Both the position numbers and the translations under genes were made by a program. DNA of 64,000 bases. Origin: Vicinamibacterales bacterium (GTDB lineage: Bacteria > Acidobacteriota > Vicinamibacteria > Vicinamibacterales > UBA8438). Shown piece by piece: positions 94 to 26,141 of the stretch. Where the stretch lies: assembly GCA_965208535.1 (NCBI GenBank), contig CBDBOU010000003.1, positions 282,623-346,622 of the forward strand. Direction: 5' to 3'. Numbering within the stretch: the stretch's first letter is position 1; each line of letters begins with the position of its first letter. Below the pieces are notes generated by a model. That model had not been told where the DNA came from. It saw only the letters and a program-made list of their open reading frames with translations, and ran no database searches.

Positions 94-783
94 ATGACCT
101 TCGACGTTTTCGGTACCGTCGTCGACTGGCGGACCAGCATCACCCGCGAGGGCGAGGCCGTCGGCCGGGCCAAGGGCATCGACGCGGACTGGGCCGCCTT
201 CGCCGACGAGTGGCGGGGGGGGTACGGGCCCGCGATGGGGCGAGTGCGCCGCGGTGAGCTGGGGTGGACGAAGATCGACGACCTGCACCGCATGATCCTC
301 GACGAGCTGGTCCCGAAGTACGGTCTCGAAAGCCTCACAGAGGAGGAGCTCGACCACCTGAACCGGGCCTGGCACCGGCTCACGCCGTGGCCGGACACCG
401 TGGAGGGGCTGACCCGGCTGCGGACGCGCTACGTGCTGGCGTCGCTGTCGAACGGGAACGTGGCGCTGCTCGTCAACATGGCCAAGAACGCCGGGATCCC
501 ATGGGACGCCGTGCTGTCGGCCGAACTGGCGCGCCACTACAAGCCCGATCCGGAGGCCTACCTGACGGCGGCCGACCTGCTGGGGCTCGACCCCGAGCAG
601 GTGATGATGGTTGCGGCGCACAAGGGAGACCTCCGGGCGTCCGCGCGCCTCGGCTTCCGAACCGGCTACGTGCCGCGTCCGACGGAGTTCGGGCCGAACG
701 TCGAGCGGGATCTGACGCCGGATCCCGATTTCGACCTGGTCGCCACCGACTTCAACGACATGGCGAGCCAGCTCGGTCTCTGA
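94..783 (+). CDS. HAD-superfamily hydrolase, L-2-haloacid dehalogenase (type II)-like
   Basis: ORF 46..783. FDVFGTVVDW matches HAD motif I, and SNGN and KPD motifs are present. ATG at 94 gives a typical ~229 aa product; TTG at 46 is the alternative start. Confidence 0.8.
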   Translation: MTFDVFGTVVDWRTSITREGEAVGRAKGIDADWAAFADEWRGGYGPAMGRVRRGELGWTKIDDLHRMILDELVPKYGLESLTEEELDHLNRAWHRLTPWPDTVEGLTRLRTRYVLASLSNGNVALLVNMAKNAGIPWDAVLSAELARHYKPDPEAYLTAADLLGLDPEQVMMVAAHKGDLRASARLGFRTGYVPRPTEFGPNVERDLTPDPDFDLVATDFNDMASQLGL

Positions 784-21856: not shown

Positions 21857-23335
21857 TCAGGCCTCCCCTTCCCGCAGGTCCCGCACCGCCAGGGCATAGG
21901 GCGCCGCGTCGACCCCGTAGGCGCGGGCGGCCGCCGTCTGCGCGGCGAGCGTGGCGGTGGCGCGGTCCCGAAACGCGGGATCGCTCGTCAGGTCCGCCAG
22001 TCTCAGGAGCACGCGCGCGGCCTCGCAGTTGGCGGCGAACGGACGTACCCGTTCGCGCAGCAGGCCGATGTCGTCCGGACCGTGGACGCGGTCCAGGAAT
22101 CCGCCCCCCGCCGTGTCCCACAGGTGGTGGAGCGCGAAGTGCATCAGCTCCTGGGCCATGTCCAGGTAGACCTCGCGGCCGGTGAGCTCGTGCAGGTCCA
22201 GCAGCGCTGCGCCGGCCCGGACCTGGTCGGCGAGCAGACCGCGCACCCCCGTGCGTTCGCCGGCCCGGTGGGCGATTCCGCCGCCGCGTTCGTAGGTGCC
22301 CGCCACCACGTGCTCCATCGCGTCGACGGCGAGCTCCAGCAGCGACGAGTCGCCGAGCGACTCTGCCGCCGCGGCGAACGACTGCGCCATGAGCGCCGTG
22401 CCGTCGGCATAGATCGCGCGGTCGACCGGAGGAGGCCCGGCCGCGGGTGCGTCCGCCGCCGCCCGCGGCCGGTAGTTGTCCGGGTAGCGTTGCTGGCTGG
22501 CGAAGAACCCCGCGCGGTCCGGGGTCAGGTTGGCGAGCGTCCGACGCACATAGCCGACGACGCCGATTGCTCGGTCGAGACAGTCATCGTCTTCGGACAG
22601 CAGAAAGAGGCGGAGCGCCTCCGCGTTCACATGGAGCAGCTTTTCCGTCGCCGGCTCGGTCCAGTCGCGGCGCGCACAGTAGCGGAAGATGCCGCCCTCG
22701 AGCTCGTCGTACAGCCCGCCCCGGGCCATGGCGCGCAGCGTTCGCTCGACCACCGTCGCAAACGCCTCATCGCCGGTTTGGGCACGACGCCACGCCAGTT
22801 CCAGAGCGGCCGCGTGCACCCGCTTCGTCCCGGTACCGAAGCCCGCGTGCTGCTCGTCGAACTGGGAAAGAAGATGCTCGCCGAGCCAGGCATCGATTTC
22901 CGACGCGGGGCCTTCGTCCCAAGCGATGGGTGGATGCGGTTCGCCCGTTGCACGCTGCTCGGCTATCGCGTCCCGCTGCTCCTCGAACGCGTCGGCGACC
23001 CGCGGCAACAGGTTGCGCATCCGCTCCGTCGTCGCGAAGGTCTCCCCGCCGAGCACCCGGCCGTCCGGGGTCAGGAAAGCGGTGGTCGGCCACGCGCCGA
23101 GGTTGTAGCGCTCGGCGATGTCCGGGCGCGCGTCCACATCGACGCGGATCGGGACGAACCGATCGTCGAGCAGCTCGGCCACGCGCCGATCGGCGTACGC
23201 GCCGCGCATCATCGCCGCGGTCGCGGGGCACCAGTGCGCGCCGATCGCCAGCAGCACCGGCACCTGCTCGGCGCGCGCCTCGTCGAAGGCGGTTCTTCCC
23301 CACGAACGCCACTCGACGAGCGAGGTCGTCGCCAC
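21857..23335 (-). CDS. Thioredoxin-domain protein, DUF255/YyaL (SSP411-like) family
   Basis: 492 aa. The N-terminal thioredoxin-like region (WRSWGRTAFDEARAEQVPVLLAIGAHWC) is followed by an alpha/alpha-toroid-like C-terminal region. Confidence 0.8.
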   Translation of the reverse strand: MATTSLVEWRSWGRTAFDEARAEQVPVLLAIGAHWCPATAAMMRGAYADRRVAELLDDRFVPIRVDVDARPDIAERYNLGAWPTTAFLTPDGRVLGGETFATTERMRNLLPRVADAFEEQRDAIAEQRATGEPHPPIAWDEGPASEIDAWLGEHLLSQFDEQHAGFGTGTKRVHAAALELAWRRAQTGDEAFATVVERTLRAMARGGLYDELEGGIFRYCARRDWTEPATEKLLHVNAEALRLFLLSEDDDCLDRAIGVVGYVRRTLANLTPDRAGFFASQQRYPDNYRPRAAADAPAAGPPPVDRAIYADGTALMAQSFAAAAESLGDSSLLELAVDAMEHVVAGTYERGGGIAHRAGERTGVRGLLADQVRAGAALLDLHELTGREVYLDMAQELMHFALHHLWDTAGGGFLDRVHGPDDIGLLRERVRPFAANCEAARVLLRLADLTSDPAFRDRATATLAAQTAAARAYGVDAAPYALAVRDLREGEA

Positions 23336-23433: not shown

Positions 23434-23898
23434 CTACTCCTCGGTGATGTTCGCCTCGATGTCGAGGTCGATGCAGCCGGCCACGCTGTTGGCGGCGGGA
23501 CACCCGGTCGGATGCCGTTCCACGGCGCGCTCGGCCGCCTCGCGCTTCCCCTTCGGGACCTTGAGGTCGTAGCGGACGCGGATGCGCGTGATGCGCAGCA
23601 CCTTGTCGATTGCTTCGATGTCGCCTTCGACGGCGGCGGTGATCTTGTCGGGCGGCGCCGGAATCTCGCGCACCTCCAGTGCGCGTGCAAGGGTGCCGAG
23701 CAGTCAACCGCCGACGGCGCCGACCATGTAGTCGAGCGTCGCGGGCACGTCCTCGTCCGGCTCCACCCCGTAGAACTTCTTGATGCCCCCGTGCACGCCG
23801 AACCGGATCGGCGTGTCGAATCCCTCCAGGAACATCTCGCGGATCGGGCCCTTGACCCGATCGATCCGCATGCGGCTGGTATGTACGACGTCTGGCAC
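23434..23898 (-). CDS. OsmC/Ohr-family peroxiredoxin-like protein with one in-frame TGA at the peroxidatic-Cys position (candidate selenocysteine; otherwise a pseudogene)
   Basis: Track ORFs 23704..23976 and 23434..23673 share a frame and are separated only by TGA (23706..23704). The junction reads DYMVGAVGG-TGA-LLGTLARALEV. A second Cys sits in HPTGCPAANSV. GTG at 23898 is preceded by GGAAGGAG. Confidence 0.6.
23653..23698 (-). promoter_or_regulatory. SECIS-like hairpin immediately downstream of the in-frame UGA
   Basis: Lower stem CGGCACC/GGCGCCG has 6 of 7 pairs. Upper stem CGCGCAC/GUGCGCG is a perfect 7 bp. The apical loop is UGGAG and starts 25 nt after the UGA. Confidence 0.45.
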
Positions 23899-23974
23899 TA
23901 CCGGCTCCTTCCGCCTCCGGCCGCGGTCGCGCGGCGCCGGGCATTCCTCGTCCCCGATGCTACAATCGGGGACC

Positions 23975-24529
23975 ATGCAAGAGTCAAGAATCGGTGTCGT
24001 TTTCGTCCTGTTCGCAGCCGCGCTTCTGCTCGCCGGAAGTGCGCTCCCGGCCGGCGCGCAGGCGCCGAGCTTTCAGGCGGAAGAGGGTCCGGAAGGGGTC
24101 CGCAACTACACCCGCGTAGACGCCACCGTGGCCTGCGCCGGGGCCACCCCGGTCGAGGCGTTGGCCGTGCTGCGGGAGCGGGGCTTCAACACCATCGTCA
24201 ACTTCCGCACCCCGGGCGAGCAGGGGGCCAATATCGACGAGAGCCGCGCGGCGGCCGAGGCGGCCGGGCTCAACTACGTCCACCTGCCGTTCCGCACGCC
24301 GACGGCCGAGATCGCCGAGGCGTTCCTGGAGACGGTGGCCGAGCCGTCGAACCAGCCGGTCTACATCCACTGCGGCTCCGCCAACCGGGTCGGCGCCATG
24401 TGGCTGATCAAGCGGGTCAAGCAGGACGGCTACTCCGTCGAGGACGCGACCGCCGAGGCCGAGGCGATCGGGCTGCGCAGCGTCCCGCTGCGGAACTTCG
24501 CGCTCGAGTACGTCGGCGCGGGCAACTGA
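23975..24529 (+). CDS. Secreted PTP-like phosphatase / DUF442 (Cys-based HCX5R) protein
   Basis: 184 aa within ORF 23780..24529. A signal peptide and the active-site motif IHCGSANRVG are present. TACAAT lies at 23961..23966, 8 nt before the ATG. Confidence 0.75.
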   Translation: MQESRIGVVFVLFAAALLLAGSALPAGAQAPSFQAEEGPEGVRNYTRVDATVACAGATPVEALAVLRERGFNTIVNFRTPGEQGANIDESRAAAEAAGLNYVHLPFRTPTAEIAEAFLETVAEPSNQPVYIHCGSANRVGAMWLIKRVKQDGYSVEDATAEAEAIGLRSVPLRNFALEYVGAGN

Positions 24530-24554: not shown

Positions 24555-26141
24555 GTGGCCGACGATACGGCAGCCAGCGGCACCGTGGCCAGCAACGATC
24601 CGGCGCGCCTCGGCGACATGGACGCCGAGGCGTTCCGCCGGCACGGCCACGCCCTCGTCGACTGGATCGCCGACTACCTGAACGACACCGAGCGCTACCC
24701 GGTCCTGTCCCGGAACGCGCCGGGCGCCGTCCGCGACGCGCTGCCGCCGTCACCGCCCGCCAAGGGCGTCCCTTTCGACGCGATCCTCCGCGACTTCGAG
24801 CGGGTGATCCTGCCCGGGATCACCCACTGGAACCACCCGGGCTTCTTCGCCTACTTCGCCATCTCGGGCGCCGCGCCGGGGGTGCTCGCCGAATTCCTCT
24901 CGGCCGCCCTGAACGTGCAGGCGATGTTGTGGCGCACATCGCCCGCCGCCACCGAGCTCGAAGAGGTGACGCTGGGTTGGCTGCGGCAGCTTCTCGGCCT
25001 GCCCGACGCGTTCGAGGGGGTCATCTACGACACCGCGTCCATTTCGAGCCTGCACGCGCTGGCCGCGGCCCGGCACCGGACGGTGGCCGACGTCCGCACG
25101 CGCGGGCTGGCCGGGCGGCCGGATCTCGGCCCGCTGCGCGTGTACGCCTCCGAGCAGGCCCATTCCTCGATAGACAAGGCGATCATGACGCTCGGGCTGG
25201 GCCACGACGCGCTGGCCCGCGTCCCGGCCGACGCCGAGTTCCGGATGCGGCCCGACGCGCTGCGGGAGGCCATTGCCGCCGACCGTGCGCGCGGCGTGAC
25301 GCCGCTGGCGGTGGTCGCCACCGTCGGCACCACCTCGACCACCAGCGTCGACCCGGTGGGTTCCATCGCGCGCATCTGCGCCGACGAGGGGCTCTGGCTG
25401 CACGTCGACGCGGCCTACGCCGGGGTCGCGGCCCTCGTGCCGGAGACGCGGGACGTGCTTGCCGGCTGCGAGCAGGCGGACTCCTTCGTGGTCAACCCGC
25501 ACAAGTGGCTCTTCACCCCGTTCGACCTCAGCGCGTTCTACTGCCGCCACATGGACACCGTCCGCGACGCCTTCTCGCTGACCCCCGACTACCTGCAGAC
25601 GCTCGAGGCGGTGGAGGTCCGCAACCTGATGGACACCGGTGTCCAGCTCGGCCGCCGTTTCCGCTCGCTGAAGCTCTGGGCCATCCTGCGGCACTTCGGA
25701 TCGGAGGGCATCCGCGGCCGGCTCGCCGAGCACATGCGGCTGGCTCGGCTGTTCGCGGCGTGGGTCGACGAGAGCCCGGACTTCGAGCGGCTTGCGCCGG
25801 TGCCGTTCAGCGTCGTCTGCTTCCGGGCAAGAGGCAGAGGTGCGGCGGCCCCAGCGGATGGCGCCGGCACCGACGGAGGCCCCTCGGCCACCGCCGGCGC
25901 CGACGACACCGGGTCCGAGGAGGCGATTCCGATCGCGGGCGACGTCACTGATGCCGAGACAGATGCCCTCAACGAGCGGCTGATCGAGGCGGTGAACGCC
26001 ACGGGCGAGGTCTTCCTGTCCCATACGCGTCTCAACGGGCGCTTCACCATCCGCCTGGCCATCGGGCACGTACGCACGGAGGAGCGCCACGTGCGGCGCG
26101 CGTGGGACCTGCTGAACGAGAAGCTGCGCACCCTGCGCTGA
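24555..26141 (+). CDS. Group II PLP-dependent decarboxylase (aromatic-L-amino-acid decarboxylase-like)
   Basis: 528 aa. Motifs HWNHPGFFAYF and NPHKW (PLP lysine) are present. The likely true start is ATG 24618 (MDAEAFRRHG). There is a low-complexity Gly/Ala/Asp insertion near residue 440. Confidence 0.88.
   Translation: MADDTAASGTVASNDPARLGDMDAEAFRRHGHALVDWIADYLNDTERYPVLSRNAPGAVRDALPPSPPAKGVPFDAILRDFERVILPGITHWNHPGFFAYFAISGAAPGVLAEFLSAALNVQAMLWRTSPAATELEEVTLGWLRQLLGLPDAFEGVIYDTASISSLHALAAARHRTVADVRTRGLAGRPDLGPLRVYASEQAHSSIDKAIMTLGLGHDALARVPADAEFRMRPDALREAIAADRARGVTPLAVVATVGTTSTTSVDPVGSIARICADEGLWLHVDAAYAGVAALVPETRDVLAGCEQADSFVVNPHKWLFTPFDLSAFYCRHMDTVRDAFSLTPDYLQTLEAVEVRNLMDTGVQLGRRFRSLKLWAILRHFGSEGIRGRLAEHMRLARLFAAWVDESPDFERLAPVPFSVVCFRARGRGAAAPADGAGTDGGPSATAGADDTGSEEAIPIAGDVTDAETDALNERLIEAVNATGEVFLSHTRLNGRFTIRLAIGHVRTEERHVRRAWDLLNEKLRTLR

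Follow-up and report, generated by a model that had tools for sequence, protein, structure and literature searches.

In the 64,000-nucleotide stretch of DNA analysed here (below, the window), two minus-strand open reading frames (ORFs), 23704..23976 and 23434..23673, lie in a common frame with one TGA (23706..23704) between them. This arrangement was noted in a preliminary description of the locus and is confirmed by reading the sequence. Are we looking at a gene broken by a mutation, at a gene split into two pieces, or at a single gene in which the UGA is translated?

An OsmC-like reading frame with an in-frame UGA

Joined across the TGA, the two ORFs encode an OsmC-like product of 154 amino acids, as had been proposed. 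With Cys placed at the TGA, this product matches the Pfam OsmC domain (PF02566) with 44 bits (cut-off 27.5), over profile positions 6-100 of 100. The complete coding sequence of the putative OsmC-like selenoprotein (23434..23898, minus strand) comprises 154 codons followed by a TAG stop (23436..23434). It begins with GTG (23898..23896), a start that agrees with the N-termini of the homologues (M-x-[DE]-V-V-H-T-S-R). A Shine-Dalgarno-like sequence, GGAAGGAG (23905..23912, minus strand), can be read 6 nt upstream of this GTG. Full-length, colinear homologues of the gene are found in 80 species. On the comparisons described below, 23898..23434 is one intact gene, encoding a predicted OsmC-type peroxide-detoxifying enzyme in which the catalytic Cys is very probably replaced by selenocysteine (Sec).

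The in-frame UGA, which is the proposed Sec codon, is codon 65 (23704..23706, minus strand) and sits in a near-invariant GGU-UGA-CUG context. Of 89 related sequences, 88 have TGA in the corresponding column and one, a Cys homologue, has TGC; where there is a stop at this column, it is always TGA (88/88 relatives). The flanking codons are almost fixed (GGT 98%, CTG 98%). The 88 TGA sequences include 80 species-level genomes (Vicinamibacterales, Vicinamibacteria and other Acidobacteriota) with 66-99% protein identity, a divergence that excludes the 80 loci being one contaminating sequence, and 84 of the 88 are distinct across the compared 120-codon stretch. Among near-identical strains, the TGA is present in six independent assemblies. 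In JGI gene calls the column reads “W”, and the underlying DNA is again TGA.

Is the region beyond the TGA still under selection? The pN/pS ratio is 0.30 downstream of the TGA versus 0.13 upstream, with pS about 0.5-0.6. Because the downstream ratio stays at 0.30 while pS there is 0.52-0.59, we take the downstream half of the gene to be translated. This bears on the possibility that the gene is inactivated, either by a TGC-to-TGA nonsense mutation or by a sequencing or assembly error, so that only a pseudogene or a 64-residue product is left. Gene callers do treat the gene in this way, and C-terminal fragments of 79-89 amino acids are found in ENA, Logan and NCBI. However, the TGA occupies the identical column in all 80 species and in the six strain assemblies, and the sequence after it is under purifying selection. 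Together, the 80-species conservation and the downstream selection effectively refute a nonsense mutation or base-call error as the origin of the TGA, and we assign next to no probability to an inactivated gene.

In more distant, full-length homologues (P0002, P0012, P0026, P0042 and P0061) the codon-65 column holds Cys, as it does in approximately 35 further representative clusters, which carry a CxxGT motif. The Cys codon is TGC in all three homologues read as DNA (L008, L091 and L092). The TGA had been placed at the catalytic Cys position from the residue context, and the alignment agrees, matching the column to the first of the two conserved Cys, nearer the N-terminus, in Thermus OsmC (1ukk). 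The second redox residue, the proposed resolving Cys, had been described as intact within a C-P motif. This is Cys133 (TGT codon, 23500..23502, minus strand) in a G-C-P-A motif, which aligns with the second Cys of 1ukk and with the GCPV motifs of both 1ukk and E. coli OsmC (1qwi); the C-P is invariant among close relatives. The two redox positions that characterize the OsmC superfamily are thus both represented, position 65 and Cys133 aligning with the two Cys of 1ukk, and the family profile matches OsmC structures at 1.9e-7 (1ukk).

Published work on bacterial selenoproteins looks for a TGA conserved in at least two homologous sequences, for coding conservation past the TGA, and for at least two homologues with Cys aligned to it (PMC1088965, PMC12013277); all of these are seen at this locus. 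The preliminary description had left a choice between Sec recoding and a TGC-to-TGA nonsense mutation. The comparative data, i.e., a TGA in 88 of 88 sequences, purifying selection downstream, a Cys aligned in the same column and the conserved hairpin discussed below, decide the question for recoding.

It had also been pointed out that TGA is a normal stop elsewhere in the window, and indeed it ends 26 of 39 coding-like ORFs. A codon-position G+C scan of the window for in-frame TGAs with a coding signal on both sides returned, besides codon 65, only adjacent genes in the same frame (42274, plus strand; 49184 and 12017, minus strand). Codon 65 is the only such TGA when these adjacent-gene cases are set aside.

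The hairpin downstream of the UGA

Shortly after the UGA lies a SECIS-like hairpin (23667..23685, minus strand) with a 5' arm CGCGCAC (23685..23679), a loop UGGAG (23678..23674) and a 3' arm GUGCGCG (23673..23667). The stem is 7 bp long and the spacer after the UGA 18 nt, which puts the loop at a distance of 25 nt (23703..23679), a spacing in which no homologue has a single indel. This distance had been described as lying within the range of bacterial SECIS elements; the published range is 16-37 nt. The bSECISearch consensus (quoted in PMC13188914) describes a loop of 3-9 nt, an upper stem of 4-16 bp, a UGA-to-loop distance of 16-37 nt, a G at loop position 1 or 2 with the pattern N1-G-[G|U]-N-N2, and a minimum free energy of -7.5 kcal/mol or lower. 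The hairpin agrees with every one of these constraints (5-nt loop, 7-bp stem, U-G-G pattern, 25 nt, -13.2 kcal/mol).

Folded alone, the hairpin at its -13.2 kcal/mol has z = -4.2, and none of 200 shuffles folds as well; across 72 homologues its energy ranges from -11.2 to -15.1 kcal/mol. In 72 distinct sequences the upper stem pairs in 99% of cells, and compensatory changes are found in the stem: C-G to G-C in six sequences and A-U to G-C in one. Some of these compensatory changes alter amino acids (R to G together with E to Q; V to A). The covariation score of the hairpin is reached by 0 of 500 shuffles. Synonymous sites are frozen in the hairpin codons, where the majority-codon fraction is 0.95 compared with 0.64 elsewhere (Mann-Whitney p = 8e-5), and pS across the 13 codons after the UGA is 0.215. 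The loop reads U-G-G-(A/U)-(G/A/C) with both Gs invariant in 72 sequences, and its ends N1 and N2 can form a base pair, which is U-G in 41 sequences and U-A in 30. Covariation and synonymous constraint lend indirect support to the hairpin as a candidate bacterial SECIS. As such it would illustrate cleanly, through comparison of species, a minimal bacterial SECIS of 7 bp with a UGG loop.

The stability of the wider region has also been weighed with respect to inactivation of the gene. In this 70% G+C DNA the fold of the whole 73-nt region is not unusual (z = -0.83). Taken from this window by itself, the hairpin region is no more stable than shuffled G+C-rich sequence, as would suit a dead gene. 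Against this, both the hairpin and the nucleotide context of the UGA stay frozen among the homologues, with compensatory changes, and neither a decaying pseudogene nor a base-call error would be expected to look like this.

The preliminary description had drawn the hairpin as two-tiered. Its upper tier stands as the conserved and covarying stem just described. The lower stem, CGGCACC/GGCGCCG (span 23653..23698, minus strand; arms 23698..23692 and 23659..23653; one A-C mismatch), is present here but finds no comparative support. Only 74% of its cells are paired, several of its pairs fail to form in 20-32 of the 72 sequences, and it is also missing from the RNAalifold prediction; we have rejected it as a conserved element.

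Like bacterial SECIS elements (E. coli fdhF type; bSECISearch consensus), the hairpin lies within the coding sequence, a short way behind the UGA, and it has a 7-bp upper stem and a 5-nt loop of the form N1-G-[G|U]-N-N2. It differs from them in that neither a bulged U nor an extended lower helix is conserved. Among the three TGC forms that were read as DNA, none has this hairpin, and one of them (L092) has a stable local hairpin of an unrelated kind. An Rfam search of the 64-kb window gave zero matches at gathering score, and only chance-level matches in the hairpin region.

The hairpin also bears on a second way of explaining the two ORFs, in which the gene is split into a 64-residue N-terminal piece and an approximately 79-residue C-terminal piece restarted at the GTG at 23673, the two giving an OsmC-like fold without recoding. 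There is indeed a GTG in frame 10 codons after the TGA, and callers begin ORFs there or nearby. Nevertheless, the internal start is unconserved, and the C-terminal fragments are called from differing codons depending on the species (positions 66-77). The spacer has no conserved motif resembling a ribosome-binding site; its conserved nucleotides are those of the hairpin. The TGA and the supposed restart are separated by 10-12 residues (LLGTLARALEV) whose conservation ranks with the highest in the protein, and a split would lose the catalytic residue that the Cys homologues keep. We regard a split gene as very improbable.

Proposed decoding and redox chemistry

Judging from these sequence comparisons, it is highly likely that one functional gene occupies 23898..23434 (minus strand), that it encodes a thiol/selenol peroxidase of the OsmC superfamily, and that its UGA codon 65 is read as Sec. 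We infer Sec as the inserted residue, the binding of SelB, the peroxidase chemistry and the reductant, and the following scheme is modelled on the bacterial Sec pathway and on the OsmC/Ohr enzymes. As the ribosome nears the UGA, SelB-GTP-Sec-tRNA(Sec) would bind the G+C-rich 7-bp hairpin with its U-G-G-N-N loop, bringing Sec-tRNA(Sec) to the A site, where it would compete with RF2. A C directly after UGA makes a weak termination context, so the fixed C at this position should aid Sec insertion. In the protein, Sec65 would take the place of the peroxidatic Cys of OsmC/Ohr enzymes. A hydroperoxide would oxidise it to a selenenic acid, which would react with Cys133 of the G-C-P motif to form a selenenylsulfide, and the selenenylsulfide would in turn be reduced by an external dithiol.

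It is tempting to look for this reductant next to the gene. Downstream, in most species, there is a gene for a thioredoxin-domain protein, which may serve as the reductant. In the window this is a Thioredox_DsbH/DUF255 gene (21857..23335, minus strand; Pfam PF03190 and PF13899), and in 71 of 80 species such a DUF255 gene lies on the same strand at most 4 kb downstream of the OsmC-like gene. Its product is a candidate redox partner of the putative selenoprotein, as its position suggests. No promoter or terminator was found by a scan of the stretches that separate the OsmC-like gene from its neighbours.

Could the UGA be decoded as something other than Sec? A tRNA with a UCA anticodon, either a suppressor or one resembling tRNA-Sec, might insert Cys, Ser or Trp, possibly aided by the hairpin; candidate decoders would be the acidobacterial allo-tRNAs or a tRNA-Cys of the selC* type. 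The allo-tRNAs of Acidobacteria, which have 8/4 or 9/3 structures, are reported as possible nonsense suppressors, and in other phyla UGA is reported to be possibly read by a tRNA-Cys that mimics tRNA-Sec (PMC5389517). Sequence does not identify the inserted residue. The sel machinery, moreover, was found neither in the window nor in the flanks of 80 related genomes (each flank at most 10 kb, approximately 1.6 Mb in total): ARAGORN detected tRNA-Sec neither in the 64-kb window nor in these flanks, and tblastn with E. coli SelA, SelB and SelD matched nothing in the window or in any of the loci. On the other hand, the UGA falls exactly on the catalytic Cys column and alternates there with Cys, the classic signature of Sec/Cys exchange, and both the loop sequence of the hairpin and its spacing match the consensus for SelB-type bSECIS elements. 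Furthermore, general suppression would be costly, since TGA ends most genes in the window, and ARAGORN found no such suppressor tRNA gene in the window or flanks. Decoding as Cys, Ser or Trp therefore seems improbable to us, and we retain Sec as the predicted residue.

Acidobacteriota include documented Sec users (PMC1794560, PMC12013277). Counting against Sec, a second selenoprotein gene was seen neither in the window nor in the 80 loci; the apparent cases in the loci, with translations judged by eye, were wrong-frame or adjacent-gene ones.

Known families and public annotation

The preliminary description had stated that OsmC-like selenoproteins are listed in bacterial surveys, and the literature bears this out. 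The family was reported from the Sargasso Sea by Zhang, Fomenko and Gladyshev in 2005 (PMC1088965) and again from the GOS data in 2008 (PMC2398784), and it appears in later reviews (PMC9312934, PMC13188914). OsmC-like selenoproteins have thus been known as a kind since 2005, and the gene described here is a further member. What is known of Sec decoding and of OsmC enzyme function is unchanged by it.

How close is the gene to the published members? The published family is assigned to COG1765 (YhfA), has the motif UxxT and is represented by 3-5 marine sequences (PMC1088965, PMC2398784). Both groups have the OsmC fold (PF02566), an in-frame UGA for Sec, Cys homologues at the same position and, immediately after the UGA, a SECIS-like hairpin whose small apical loop contains a G. 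By contrast, going by the published description, the marine motif is UxxT, whereas the motif here is U-x-x-G-T (U-L-L-G-T), with T at +4. The COG1765 archetype, E. coli YhfA, is matched with an hhalign probability of 69%, and the nearest solved relatives here are OsmC proper. In addition, the present clade occurs in at least 80 species, mostly of an acidobacterial order of soil and sediment.

A second point of comparison is the NCBIfam model NF041052, “OsmC-related (seleno)protein,” an OsmC-superfamily model that likewise covers Sec and Cys forms and is the best-scoring NCBIfam model for our protein. The window protein nevertheless scores only 21.5 bits (21.3 in a second figure) against its cut-off of 95, and among 47 full-length relatives the best E-value is 1.7e-8; these values place the clade outside NF041052. 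The curated subfamily models score below their cut-offs as well: OsmC (TIGR03562) 17.7 bits versus 85.8, Ohr (TIGR03561) 12.9 versus 88.85, and SACOL1771 18.4 versus 166. With the two-Cys OsmC/Ohr proteins (1qwi, 1ukk and Pseudomonas Ohr 1n2f) the protein shares the fold family, by Pfam and PDB sequence matches, and equivalent redox residues, position 65 corresponding to the first Cys and Cys133 (G-C-P) to the second. It differs from them in the putative Sec that replaces the first Cys and in an additional conserved N-terminal segment of approximately 45 residues (VVHTSR...GVHGGIKKFYG).

These genes might form a distinct, uncatalogued clade of OsmC-superfamily selenoproteins, separate from both COG1765/UxxT and NF041052, with the Sec form fixed across Vicinamibacterales. 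The Sec form in 80 of 80 retrieved species genomes, and the presence of the gene as split calls in numerous lineages that diverge further, speak for such a clade, which we propose tentatively, rating its chances as slightly less than even. If it is real, a dominant acidobacterial order of soil and sediment would need selenium for a conserved peroxide-defence enzyme, one that usually adjoins a thioredoxin-domain (DUF255) gene whose product may reduce it. Sec decoding at this locus would in itself imply that Vicinamibacterales, which are abundant in soil and sediment and known almost only from metagenome-assembled genomes, use Sec and keep a Sec-dependent peroxidase (the activity being predicted) under strong selection.

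Public annotation of the clade is split or truncated. ENA and Logan hold fragments of 79-80 amino acids. The GenBank entries are of 85-89 amino acids and are named “OsmC family protein” or “hypothetical protein”; that GenBank holds only such fragments is consistent with the clade falling outside NF041052, NCBI's OsmC selenoprotein model, which misses it. In a library of 1.84 billion representatives, approximately 40 clusters are N-terminal fragments, and all six that were read end exactly before the codon-65 column; approximately 15 clusters are C-terminal fragments, and all five that were read start just after it. At least 80 species, together with dozens of clusters that diverge further, are affected by the split or truncated annotation or by the spurious Trp in JGI.

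The OsmC-like frame and its TGA codon

Positions 23976..23434 of the minus strand form a single frame, broken by one TGA at 23706..23704. Homologue N-termini (M-x-[DE]-V-V-H-T-S-R) set the start of the OsmC-like gene at GTG 23898, and a putative ribosome-binding-site-like GGAAGGAG (23912..23905, minus strand) lies six bases before it. The gene (23898..23434, minus strand) has 154 codons, and its product, with Cys put at the TGA (codon 65), matches Pfam OsmC (44 bits versus a cut-off of 27.5). The two ORFs of the preliminary description are thus one OsmC-like protein. In the window, which has a G+C content of 70%, TGA is a normal stop, as first described, because it ends 26 of the 39 coding-like ORFs and the other in-frame cases are adjacent genes; the OsmC-like gene is the sole exception there. 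Those other cases, three TGAs with coding signal on both sides (42274, plus strand; 49184 and 12017, minus strand), were rejected as recoding sites: they are ordinary junctions, with a ribosome-binding site and the ATG of the next gene in frame after the stop.

Among 5.8 billion proteins searched, 358 relatives of the OsmC-like protein were found. Most are C-terminal fragments (79–85 amino acids, 70–96% identity), which shows that gene calling breaks off at this position in many genomes. The exact 79 amino acid C-terminal ORF occurs on 14 contigs, and all six occurrences examined, from six different assemblies, carry the TGA, which excludes the base-call error that had been raised as a point to check. 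A scan with one genome per species gave 80 loci, every one from a metagenome-assembled genome of Vicinamibacterales, Vicinamibacteria or unclassified Acidobacteriota (66–99% protein identity; top match OZ219745.1, 99%). At all 80, the codon at the Sec column is TGA and the frame runs without indels past it to the same C-terminus. By the Nei-Gojobori method over all pairs, pN/pS is 0.13 upstream of the TGA (pS 0.54) and 0.30 downstream (pS 0.52); the latter value argues that the downstream half is translated and under selection. Together, TGA conservation, the intact frame and downstream selection show that the gene is not a pseudogene and that the TGA is neither a recent nonsense mutation nor an assembly error. 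Between Sec recoding and a TGC-to-TGA mutation, the two readings initially weighed, the evidence thus favors recoding. Might the gene instead be split, with a second polypeptide restarting at an internal start after the UGA? This reading fails on two counts: conservation is lacking at the supposed restart and is among the highest in the protein for the residues that separate it from the UGA.

The putative Cys/Sec column

Among the 358 relatives, five full-length proteins have Cys at the TGA column and five others have "W." The sole "W" case checked, the homologous protein P0001, evidently owes its residue to the calling of short contigs with genetic code 4 (TGA = Trp), since in the DNA (locus L007, gene at 251..715) the codon called as Trp is TGA. 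Such calling yields spurious full-length "W" proteins. Trp stands at this column in JGI and other gene calls (P0001, P0003, P0004, P0005, P0014, P0122).

In a second search, the Cys form P0002 was compared with 1.84 billion representatives clustered at 50% identity and gave 612 matches. The best 150 of these include approximately 45 full-length proteins, approximately 40 N-terminal fragments and approximately 15 C-terminal fragments. Most of the 43 full-length proteins examined have C-x-x-G-T at the Sec column, a few have no Cys there, and one more has W. The six N-terminal fragments examined all terminate in ...VGG, ...VAG or ...LAG, directly ahead of the column, and the five C-terminal fragments examined all begin M-[LMT]-G-[TL]-L, directly past it. 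The codon is TGC in all three Cys homologues read as DNA.

The family profile finds OsmC structures among solved structures at 1.9e-7. In an alignment with Thermus OsmC 1ukk, position 65 falls on the first conserved Cys (HAGCF) and Cys133 (GCPA) on the second (GCPV); in OsmC/Ohr enzymes these two cysteines are established as the peroxidatic and the resolving one. The TGA therefore falls on the catalytic Cys column and the C-P cysteine is intact, both as proposed from the sequence. In the wider family, some full-length proteins (P0144, P0194, P0202, P0214, P0227, P0229, P0232, P0250) carry Asp, Gly, Ser, Ala or a different residue where Cys or Sec would stand, and in a few of them the C-P cysteine is missing too; peroxidase chemistry has presumably been lost in these lineages.

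A hairpin after the TGA

An alignment of the 72 nt around the TGA, with 72 distinct sequences, is gap-free. The upper stem CGCGCAC/GUGCGCG (23685..23679 and 23673..23667, minus strand) forms standard pairs in 99% of cells. Compensatory changes occur at two pairs: C-G becomes G-C in six sequences, where Arg-to-Gly is coupled with Glu-to-Gln, and A-U is replaced by G-C in one, which turns Val into Ala. Another two pairs differ between sequences through G-U wobble only. The observed covariation score was reached by none of 500 shuffles, and pairing drops to 19–56% when the 3' partner is shifted by one, two or three columns. RNAalifold finds the upper helix unaided, with a closing U-G or U-A pair within the loop. 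Of the two-tier hairpin first described, the upper stem stands; the lower stem is paired in just 74% of cells, is not recovered by RNAalifold from this alignment, and is treated as incidental.

Codon usage is frozen across the hairpin. At codons +6 to +12, 87–100% of sequences share the most common codon, against a mean of 64% over 42 other conserved four- and sixfold codons (Mann-Whitney, p = 8e-5). The frozen codons include GCA, expected to be disfavored at 70% G+C, and a sixfold-degenerate Leu that is CUG in every sequence. pS drops to 0.215 in the 13 codons following the UGA, and the GGU-UGA-CUG context is nearly invariant. The hairpin folded alone gives -13.2 kcal/mol (z = -4.2); the surrounding 73-nt region folds unremarkably for its composition, so the comparative evidence, not folding energy, carries the weight. 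The hairpin agrees with the published bacterial SECIS consensus as far as it is quoted in PMC13188914: a loop of 3–9 nt (here 5 nt), an upper stem of 4–16 bp (7 bp), a G at loop position 1 or 2, in the pattern N1-G-[G/U]-N-N2 where N1 can pair with N2 (U-G-G-A-G), a UGA-to-loop distance of 16–37 nt (25 nt) and a minimum free energy of at most -7.5 kcal/mol (-13.2 kcal/mol). All three Cys-form genes read as DNA lack it at the equivalent place; one of them forms a stable local fold of another kind.

The evidence best supports a reading in which Sec is inserted at codon 65 with the help of SelB and the SECIS element; the product would be an OsmC-type hydroperoxide reductase with two redox residues, Sec65 as the peroxidatic and Cys133 as the resolving one. 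The main alternative left is that the UGA is read by a decoder other than Sec-tRNA. Allo-tRNAs of Acidobacteria have been suggested to act as nonsense suppressors (PMC5389517), but such decoding leaves unexplained both the exact Cys/UGA alternation at the redox site and the SelB-type loop.

Probable selenium use and gene neighborhood

Neither a tRNA-Sec nor a second selenoprotein candidate was found in the window or the 80 loci. E. coli SelA, SelB and SelD queries had no tblastn match in the window and approximately 1.6 Mb of related flanks, and Rfam gave nothing relevant in the window or hairpin region. Three selenoprotein families are listed for Acidobacteria (PMC1794560), and Occallatibacter riparius is listed as a Sec user (PMC12013277); we found no paper tying Vicinamibacter to selenocysteine.

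OsmC-like selenoproteins, mentioned in the preliminary description as listed in surveys, were indeed first reported in 2005 from the Sargasso Sea (three sequences, COG1765, motif UxxT; PMC1088965), again in GOS data (PMC2398784), and are listed in current reviews (PMC9312934, PMC13188914). The motif here is U-x-x-G-T instead. The NCBI model NF041052, "OsmC-related (seleno)protein," has a cut-off of 95 bits; the window protein reaches 21.5, and 47 full-length relatives give E-values of 1.7e-8 at best. The window protein also stays below the cut-offs of the OsmC, Ohr and SACOL1771 subfamily models, and its similarity to YhfA, the COG1765 archetype, is weak (hhalign probability 69%). This clade, whose GenBank entries are 85–89 amino acid fragments, may be the published family or its sister. 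Either way, the gene is a Sec form of a fold with Sec forms already known, which will not surprise a specialist. The original observation and interpretation were essentially right: judged by its sequence, this is very probably a real selenoprotein gene, mis-annotated in public databases, of relevance to annotation and to selenium biology in Acidobacteriota.

The neighborhood is stable across the order. Directly downstream is a thioredoxin-domain (Thioredox_DsbH/DUF255) gene (21857..23335, minus strand), which shares the strand of the OsmC-like gene and lies no more than 4 kb away in 71 of the 80 species. Divergently upstream are a PTP/BLH-phosphatase-like gene with an apparent signal peptide (23975..24529, plus strand; 55/80 species) and a PLP-dependent decarboxylase gene (24555..26141, plus strand; 73/80). 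The OsmC-like and thioredoxin-domain genes are separated in some species by an ORF on the opposite strand that resembles an isocitrate or isopropylmalate dehydrogenase (locus L046, 10399..11463, minus strand, starting MAHHITLIPGDGIGPEV; similar spacing in L043 and L047–L053). The two genes are therefore not always co-transcribed, and the linkage is synteny, not a strict operon. It is tempting to hypothesize that the thioredoxin-domain protein is the reductant of the OsmC-like protein. Canonical DUF255 members have C-H-W-C-H; the N-terminal motif is A-H-W-C-P-A-T-A-A-M in the window and A-A-W-C-P-W-S-A-R-M-C in L046, with a single Cys in its place. In the closely related strains L001–L006, toxin-antitoxin, Fic and AAA-ATPase/PDDEXK genes vary downstream of the conserved block (PemK, PIN/PhdYeFM, ParD, Fic/DUF4172), which suggests a variable island approximately 6–9 kb from the OsmC-like gene.
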